64,000 nt of DNA from Torpedo marmorata. Taxonomy: Eukaryota. Under the pieces are notes generated by a model. It did not search any database. It worked only from the letters and a program-made list of their open reading frames with translations, and was not told where the DNA came from. Position 1 is the stretch's first letter. Each line of letters starts with the position of its first letter. Shown piece after piece: positions 11,893 through 12,524 of the stretch. The position numbers and the translations under genes were made by a program. The stretch is from assembly GCA_977017645.1 (NCBI GenBank), contig OZ360224.1:141608001-141672000 (forward strand), written 5' to 3'.

Positions 11893-12028
11893 GTACATTC
11901 ATTCCAAGGAAAAACCCTTCAAATGTCAAGAATGCGGCAAAGGATTTTGCCAGTCCAGAACATTAGCTGTTCACAAAACACTGCACGTGCAGGTAAAAGA
12001 GCTTAAAACCTCTAAAATAAAGTGCTGA
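11893..12028 (+). CDS. OSR1: Odd-skipped-related 1, last coding exon (zinc finger 3 and tail)
   Basis: Acceptor TTTAG|G at 11892/11893, phase-compatible. Translates [44 protein letters not shown]. The [12 protein letters not shown] tail distinguishes OSR1 from OSR2. Confidence 0.97.
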
Positions 12029-12334
12029 GCACAAGCCTGCAAACAGGACTTTGAGCGGAACATCGATGAACGCCTATAATTGTGGACTTTTTTCCGTCAA
12101 ATTTAGAAGCTATATCCATTCTGCCGCCGTTCTTTTCTGTTATTTTAATTCCAGTGCGAACAGATTATATGTATCTGTGACATTCCACTGTCAGAAAACC
12201 CGTGTTGTTTTCTAAAGGAGATGCAAGAACCGATTTGTTTCACTAGATTCCTTACGATGACACAAGGGATGGTGACGACCTTCACCGTGAACTTGGGAGC
12301 TGGAAGGTGATGCCTTGCCTACTGTATTTGACAG

Positions 12335-12524
12335 GAAAATCCGCACATATGTCCGATGTATGGGCAGAGTGTGTGATTGAAGATCCGGTCTCGTTATCTA
12401 CATCGACCTAAAAGCCTACACGCGCCGCCAGTATGCGAAGAGAAACTGTGACGTGAAGCGCCTTCACCTCATGCACAACCCCAGAGACAAGCCAGGACTC
12501 AGAAAGGCCCCGCACTGTGGATAG
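12335..12524 (+). pseudogene. Degenerate vestigial exon homologous to OSR2-type zinc fingers 4-5, inside the OSR1 3' UTR
   Basis: After TTTGACAG| it reads ENPHICPMYGQSV*LKIR, then (+1 frame) LVIYIDLKAYTRRQYAKRNCDVKRLHLMHNPR. This is colinear with recalled OSR2 [57 protein letters not shown]. Confidence 0.85.

Follow-up and report, generated by a model that had tools for sequence, protein, structure and literature searches.

A broken finger 4-5 exon in the 3′ UTR of a ray osr1 gene and the likely repeated loss of a five-finger OSR1

Introduction

Why should the 3′ untranslated region (UTR) of a three-finger osr1 gene contain a stretch that reads, in broken frames, like two further C2H2 zinc fingers? 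In mouse and Xenopus, the splice forms OSR2A and OSR2B give five- and three-finger products, respectively (accessible part of PMC3042965). A sequence-only reading of the ray locus analysed here proposed that Osr1 also once had five fingers, that its last exon decayed, that the loss might have been late or independent in this lineage and that some chondrichthyans might have kept an intact five-finger Osr1. Here, we compared the decayed stretch with OSR proteins and loci of other animals and with contigs of related organisms. We conclude that it is a broken copy of the finger 4-5 exon of osr1 itself, which likely lies silent in the 3′ UTR of a read-through three-finger mRNA and belongs to a form that was probably lost repeatedly, by a proposed relaxation of selection after gene duplication.

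Results

The window, i.e., the whole stretch of 64,000 nt that was analysed (G000:C25:141608001-141672000, from a 6.2-Gb genome), contains osr1, and all features described below lie on its plus strand. The first coding exon, which belongs to a long N-terminal form, was placed at 4057–4174 (donor CAG/GTAACT) from the sequence and by tblastn of Narcine OSR1 (91% over 43 residues). This upstream exon extends OSR1 by ~57 residues, starting with MPTWVCACA; the extension was kept in sharks, rays and chimaera, the OSR1 models of bichir, sturgeon and lungfish had extensions akin to it, and most tetrapod OSR1 models among those listed started with MGSK. The second exon (10772–11468, assigned from the sequence) contains the MGSK start at 10825 and encodes fingers 1-2. 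It is followed by an intron of 424 nt (11469–11892) and by the finger 3 exon (11893–11992), which runs up to an old splice donor, CAG/GTAAAA, at a phase-0 position equal to that of the OSR2 donor in locus L009. Reading through this donor adds the conserved OSR1 tail of 11 residues and a stop codon (11993–12028, with the stop at 12026–12028). The tail was kept from chimaera to mammals in a comparison of protein models and showed silent changes only among the listed differences of X7, a contig of a related organism; its conservation is explained by its being the read-through splice donor. The old intron of 342 nt (11993–12334), which ends at an acceptor AG (12333–12334), now forms the tail and 3′ UTR, and an AATAAA at 13060–13065 probably serves the three-finger mRNA as its poly(A) signal.

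Two further observations were made in this 3′ region. A second AATAAA, at 12016–12022, lies over the final codons of the read-through tail, where it could either serve as an early poly(A) site or simply result from the sequence coding for Lys-Ile-Lys; two silent changes in X7 convert it to ATTAAA, it was not found in the bird, and related contigs continue to about 13070. Before the main poly(A) signal, a conserved block was shared between window positions 12990–13082 and positions 6360–6452 of bird locus L010 (74% over 53 nt; E 0.004 in a search within the two UTRs), and it is possible, judging from sequence, that this block is a regulatory element.

The OSR1 protein of the window was 99% identical to Narcine OSR1, which was nearest to it in the tree, and fell among rays, which points to an electric-ray-like batoid. 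In a quick tree of the part before fingers 4-5, which had SH-aLRT values only (no bootstrap or clade test) and in which cyclostome positions are unsettled, it lay inside an OSR1 clade of 34 rows (SH-aLRT 100) and not with OSR2. A separate osr2 gene was present in the same genome on C30, with its finger 4-5 exon intact. Elsewhere in the window are pieces that, by eye and from the list of open reading frames, we take to be retroelements (17154–17833, 23314–24538, 37529–38320, 39876–40289, 45600–46862, 47299–51118, 56004–57596 and 57900–61873), presumably including reverse transcriptases of LINE-like and Penelope-like type, an L1-like ORF that is nearly complete (945 residues), and a gag-pol run that resembles an LTR retrotransposon and is interrupted by frame breaks.

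The decayed exon for fingers 4-5 spans 12335–12524 and was identified by frameshift-aware alignment, by DNA alignment and as a single match in G000. As first read, an AG is present at 12333–12334, the frame from 12335 reads ENPHICPMYGQSV followed by a stop, and a second frame ends in YAKRNCDVKRLHLMHNPRDKPGLRKAPHCG at a TAG (12522–12524). In the frameshift-aware alignment, 12335–12521 matched the last exon of OSR1 from the horn shark Heterodontus (P0126) with a score of 131, compared to a mean of 24.6 and a maximum of 41 for 60 shuffles and a maximum of 33 for 60 other pieces of the window. The match to a finger 4-5 exon was thus significant, as the original identification implied. Unrelated C2H2 genes or a transposable element had been named as possible equal or better matches, and none was found: 75 unrelated two-finger units of this genome gave a mean of 28 and a maximum of 40, and OSR1's own fingers scored 29 (fingers 1-2) and 27 (fingers 2-3). 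Likeness to fingers 4-5 of OSR2 had been the original basis for recognising the exon, and the alignment was indeed colinear, but OSR2 exons scored 79–84, below the 131 of shark OSR1, which is the proper comparison.

The OSR1-type residues of the remnant are the R and A in finger 5, plus the tail. The old exon closes with an OSR1-specific segment, NPRDKPGLRKAPHCG plus a stop (12477–12524), and this stop is in register with those of OSR1 from horn shark and sawshark. Homology does not break off at HNPR but continues as far as the stop, across a tail that is present in shark OSR1 and absent from OSR2. Against the 1.04-kb UTR, the 15-residue shark OSR1 tail alone scored 50 (60 shuffled tails: mean 22, maximum 33). 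The remnant also lies in the place expected for the exon, 342 nt behind the phase-0 donor. Its sequence had one match in G000, namely itself, in a search that may skip very common words, and with no second copy in that search a transposon or dispersed repeat was rejected as its source. Since the scores exceeded the nulls, the OSR1 tail was present and the sequence was single-copy, the remnant and the osr1 exon of sharks are orthologues, and the remnant is not a stray finger or repeat; it is a broken copy of osr1's own finger 4-5 exon.

Only 2 of the 8 zinc ligands are left (Cys 12350–12352 and His 12474–12476), the C-x2-C-x12-H-x3-H spacing is broken in both fingers and there is no open frame, so that the remnant fails as a working C2H2 unit. 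In finger 4, an extra G within 12362–12364 shifts the frame, a TGA at a Gln codon (12378–12380) stops the old frame at the same place where Narcine model P0150 ends, and a 12-nt deletion follows this TGA near 12383. The lesions of finger 5 (12423–12443) include TGC>CGC (12423), TGT>TAT (12432–12434) and a 9-nt deletion after 12440. The deletions of 12 and 9 nt and the changes TGT>TAT (twice), TGC>CGC, CAC>TAC and CAT>CTT, all listed in the sequence-only reading, were consistent with an alignment to the OSR2 exon of this genome. Its statement that most ligands are lost was true, and its count was extended by the first His of finger 4 (12387–12389), the sixth lost ligand of eight. The one frameshift and one stop that it described exist, but they needed relocating. 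The frameshift is not after LKIR but is the extra G in 12362–12364, where we set it because of the DNA alignment and because X7 and X12 are each one base short at 12364, although a protein alignment to P0126 would also permit the later placing. The original stop is the TGA at 12378–12380, whereas the TGA at 12374–12376 stops the shifted frame only. Tyr stands for the second Cys of finger 5 both in the catshark (P0124) and in the window ray (12432–12434); as this Cys was kept in five shark genera, the shared change is apparently convergent.

Contigs of related organisms (X1, X2, X7 and X12, of which X7 and X12 are spliced and putatively RNA) were compared with the window; for X7 and X12, the comparison lists 40 of 157 letter rows and 12 of 37 gap rows. 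Over the contigs spanning the remnant, X1 and X2 had 6 and 3 gap letters, respectively, with all of those in X1 upstream of the remnant, and these counts are so low that both deletions must be common to X1, X2 and the window. Similarly, the unlisted inserted letters in X7 and X12 number at most 11, so that the 12-nt deletion is common to these contigs too. The extra G was common to X1 and X2 and absent in X7 and X12, which at 12423 still have TGC for the first Cys of finger 5. A further 13 deleted bases in the remnant were private to X7, and among the rows listed X7 differed from the window by at least 10 substitutions and 14 gap bases in the 190-nt remnant, compared to 3 differences in 216 nt of coding exon. 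The lesions are nested, in that the stop position and the Cys>Tyr change also occur in Narcine, while the extra G and TGC>CGC are shared only with X1 and X2. Exon damage is thus inherited, nested and still accumulating, and since the main lesions are common to related contigs, they are not assembly errors.

The Narcine bancroftii model P0150 (XP_069742579.1), the sole Narcine OSR1 model among those listed, splices into the remnant, using an acceptor that matches 12333–12334, and ends ENPHICPTYGRECD after finger 3. The listed changes of X7 reproduce this tail, with an identical stop place. In both X7 and X12, the 424-nt intron 11469–11892 was removed, and the contigs then crossed the old intron without a joint and ran on to 13070 and 13097, where they stop, near the AATAAA at 13060. 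A joint between 11992 and 12335 was looked for in the contig runs and found in none of the four, bearing in mind that contigs drop rare splice forms. Since X7 and X12 skip the intron and show no later joint, the main spliced form in these relatives passes the donor at 11992/3 unspliced, ends its protein in the 11-residue tail and has the remnant within its 3′ UTR. A look for RNA from the species of the window itself turned up none on record. The old acceptor may still be in use.

The best match of the first protein search with the window OSR1 was a five-finger OSR1 from sawshark. Five-finger OSR1 models were found in the databases for seven chondrichthyan species (Callorhinchus, Heterodontus, Pristiophorus, Cetorhinus, two Chiloscyllium and Rhincodon), and these shark and chimaera proteins all fell inside the OSR1 clade (SH-aLRT 100 in the quick tree). 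Among 102 OSR1-type proteins, nine had five fingers (all chondrichthyan), 90 had three, two had two, and one was doubled; the last, a sturgeon model with six fingers (P0196), was not counted as a five-finger OSR1. All five-finger and read-through forms cited here are automatic models, and sharks were compared by protein models only; at this level of database gene models, the prediction of an intact five-finger Osr1 in some chondrichthyans proved correct. In Scyliorhinus canicula (XP_038656064.1, flagged as low quality), the five-finger exon was broken, with two ligands lost. Three-finger models were found among the cluster members listed (15 of 21 and 15 of 16) in the rays Pristis, Hypanus, Hemitrygon, Mobula (two), Amblyraja and Rhinoraja, where skates, stingrays and sawfish were compared by gene models and not DNA, and in the sharks Stegostoma, Carcharodon, Mustelus, Hemiscyllium, Heptranchias and Scyliorhinus torazame. 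Models P0121, P0123, P0129 and P0133 (whale shark, sevengill and epaulette shark) joined the same donor to other short tails, which suggests, as far as such models can be taken, that the 3′ end of shark osr1 may be labile.

Relative to a lamprey yardstick, fingers 4-5 had 0–3 changes of 54 in OSR2 (13 proteins), 1 in hagfish, 3 in amphioxus and 1 in Saccoglossus. The corresponding counts for OSR1 were 2 in chimaera, 3 in horn shark, 6 in sawshark, 6 in basking shark, 9 and 11 in Chiloscyllium, 12 in whale shark and 18 in catshark, while fingers 1-3 of the same OSR1 proteins had 2–3 changes of 83. Five-finger genes occurred in lamprey, hagfish, amphioxus, hemichordate and insect. Among the best 120 of 691 matches in a search with fingers 4-5, most of those from cyclostomes, amphioxus, hemichordates, echinoderms and arthropods had 83–95% identity, and the sawshark cluster was the only vertebrate row named OSR1. 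Both lamprey osr genes had five-finger and short read-through models; lamprey and hagfish have automatic models of both forms, with orthology to OSR1 or OSR2 unsettled in the quick tree. Together, the chondrichthyan models in the OSR1 clade and the five-finger outgroup genes support the proposed ancestral five-finger Osr1. Exon-only ORFs with the shark OSR1 signature were absent among 120 of 128 listed, and none of 407 candidates from a metagenome scan was related.

No five-finger OSR1 was found among the bony-vertebrate OSR1 proteins examined. The DNA-level test of bony vertebrates consisted of one bird locus (L010), as teleost locus L011 ends before the finger 3 exon, and 1135 nt of the bird, from donor to 3′ end, were compared with 1108 nt of the ray, a similar distance in both. 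The bony-vertebrate OSR1 tail begins at the same donor-like sequence in this bird locus. Bird positions 5843–5911 resembled the final part of the ray remnant over a short stretch and in register, but this likeness was not significant, its score being reached by 106 of 500 and 88 of 500 shuffles and by 223 of 500 background pieces. A profile of the shark proteins scored 17.8 in the bird, a value reached by 28 of 150 shuffles and with the best match misplaced, compared to 86.2 in the ray (0 of 150 shuffles). With scores within those of shuffles and background, a remnant in the bird osr1 UTR was not counted.

Discussion

On the accepted tree, chimaeras lie outside sharks plus rays, and sharks form one group. 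Independent loss in the ray lineage, as the sequence-only reading had suggested, follows from this tree, and since chimaera, a squalomorph and several galeomorphs have the exon intact, the OSR1 finger 4-5 exon was likely lost separately at least three times. The three-finger Osr1 known from humans thus likely goes back to an ancestral form with five fingers that was lost several times, each time separately.

We propose that the donor after finger 3 would have given an early vertebrate Osr gene two products, one with five fingers when the donor was spliced and one with three when it was read through. After duplication, OSR2 would have retained the five-finger form under tight constraint, with an exon-internal acceptor giving its short form, and OSR1 would have come to depend on read-through with its conserved short tail. 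The five-finger form of OSR1 would then have become minor, and selection on it would have relaxed because it was redundant with OSR2A. A premature stop in a terminal exon escapes nonsense-mediated decay; since the finger 4-5 exon is last, such a stop would have left a three-finger protein, and lesions would have been cheap. Death of the exon would have been a separate event in each of three groups, namely bony vertebrates (at an early time), catsharks, and electric rays or the rays ancestral to them, and in carpet sharks the exon would be drifting. A weak donor (A at +5) was rejected as a general cause, as the bear OSR2 model P0091 also reads through, as VKE.

Other histories would give the remnant a different role or origin. 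If the exon is broken yet still spliced in, electric rays would make a second three-finger OSR1 with a new tail of 13–14 residues, of which the Narcine model XP_069742579.1 would be an example; donor GT and acceptor AG are intact, and pyrimidines make up 15 of 25 upstream positions, compared to 16 of 25 at OSR2 acceptors. We consider this improbable, since X7, which by its listed differences reproduces the Narcine tail, and X12 are unspliced there (joint in 0 of 4 runs), since the extra G alters the would-be tail between lineages, so that the tail is not conserved, and since the Narcine model may stem from protein alignment. An equally doubtful proposition is that the repeated loss was selected, because the five- and three-finger forms act differently and the expression domains of Osr1 favour the short form. 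Three-finger OSR1 would then be a selected convergent end state, the module having been shed at least three times, on the same paralogue, over hundreds of millions of years, as the forms regulate targets differently, and cartilaginous fishes would show all stages, with exons that are intact, drifting, or broken and perhaps still spliced. The restriction of at least three separate losses to this paralogue, with none seen on OSR2, would fit, as would the opposite transcriptional activity of the two Osr2 forms announced in the title of Kawai 2005 (cited in PMC3042965). However, the gradual drift in carpet sharks, with open frames, resembles relaxation, mouse Osr1 and Osr2 are called functionally equivalent in a passage of 10.1101/255851 citing Gao 2009, and the motifs of chick Osr1 and Osr2 are described as very similar in a passage of 10.1101/165837.

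Much less credible is a history in which the osr1 of chondrichthyans, once they had separated from bony vertebrates, got the exon back as a copy from osr2, with subsequent decay. The exon is undetectable in the bird locus, and the intact OSR1 and OSR2 exons of chimaera are nearly identical in protein, which both speak for copying. Yet copying requires a loss plus a gain, outgroups have five fingers, one lamprey gene and a hagfish gene end finger 5 with HNPR as shark OSR1 does, and the bony-vertebrate tail starts at the donor-like sequence seen in L010. Moreover, of the codons that specify the same residue as in this genome's OSR2, 10 of 22 were identical for the remnant, as were 38 of 82 for fingers 1-3, i.e., the remnant was no closer to OSR2, in a comparison of low power. 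Practically discounted are a live exon with assembly errors, a piece of transposon and a likeness by chance, given the deletions that the window shares with X1 and X2 (both) and with X7 and X12 (the 12-nt one), the single match in G000 and the scores far over the nulls.

The reading that we favour, decay of osr1's own exon under relaxed selection, can be set against known systems. The remnant resembles the OSR2A/OSR2B system in using the same exon and the same phase-0 intron after finger 3, with five- vs three-finger products, but the OSR2B short form arises from an acceptor inside the exon (in L009) and that of OSR1 from donor read-through, and the exon is almost invariant in OSR2 but dead in the osr1 of the window. 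The automatic models of Callorhinchus (XP_007898597.1), Heterodontus (XP_067873832.1), Pristiophorus, Cetorhinus, Chiloscyllium and Rhincodon have the orthologous exon, including the OSR1-specific tail and the stop position, and unlike the remnant they have open frames and all eight ligands. Narcine XP_069742579.1 resembles the window in acceptor, Cys>Tyr change and stop position, whereas the Narcine-like X7 differs from it in having no extra G and in keeping the first Cys of finger 5. The lesions of catshark XP_038656064.1 are mostly different from those of the window, and the two are separate on the accepted tree.

In splice-form subfunctionalisation, duplicates reach different exon structures that match ancestral isoforms (Lambert 2015, accessible part of PMC4417111). 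The OSR pair works like a one-sided partition of this kind: it has not run to completion in sharks and has taken place repeatedly, in separate lineages, and the two duplicates have not each lost a different form, as OSR2 still has five- and three-finger forms, the latter made otherwise, and only the read-through route looks unconserved there. In six small supplementary files of Lambert 2015 there was no entry for the OSR pair. Starting from a five-finger type, paralogues have also come to differ in their number of fingers in the Drosophila odd-skipped family, in which Bowl has five fingers and Drm two (accessible part of PMC11368183); however, these stem from separate duplications, and Drm is a two-finger competitor whereas OSR1 is a working three-finger factor.

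No report of a five-finger OSR1, its loss or its remnant was found in the open full-text literature, most subscription papers being outside this scope, and the osr1 exon remnant is apparently unreported. Automatic models of the five-finger shark forms are already publicly available, and the process, loss of a splice form in a duplicate, is of a known kind; new here are the graded series from intact through drifting to dead and the repeated loss, not a functional consequence or a new molecular mechanism.

In the usual view, OSR1 is a three-finger protein and five-finger OSR2A the exception. These data reverse the polarity, in that five fingers are old and the short human OSR1 is derived. Fingers 4-5 hardly changed from insects to OSR2, yet were dropped again and again by OSR1. 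Sharks, chimaera and rays offer natural intact, drifting and dead alleles for the function of fingers 4-5, and a dated example of the slow, repeated shedding of a splice form by a duplicate.
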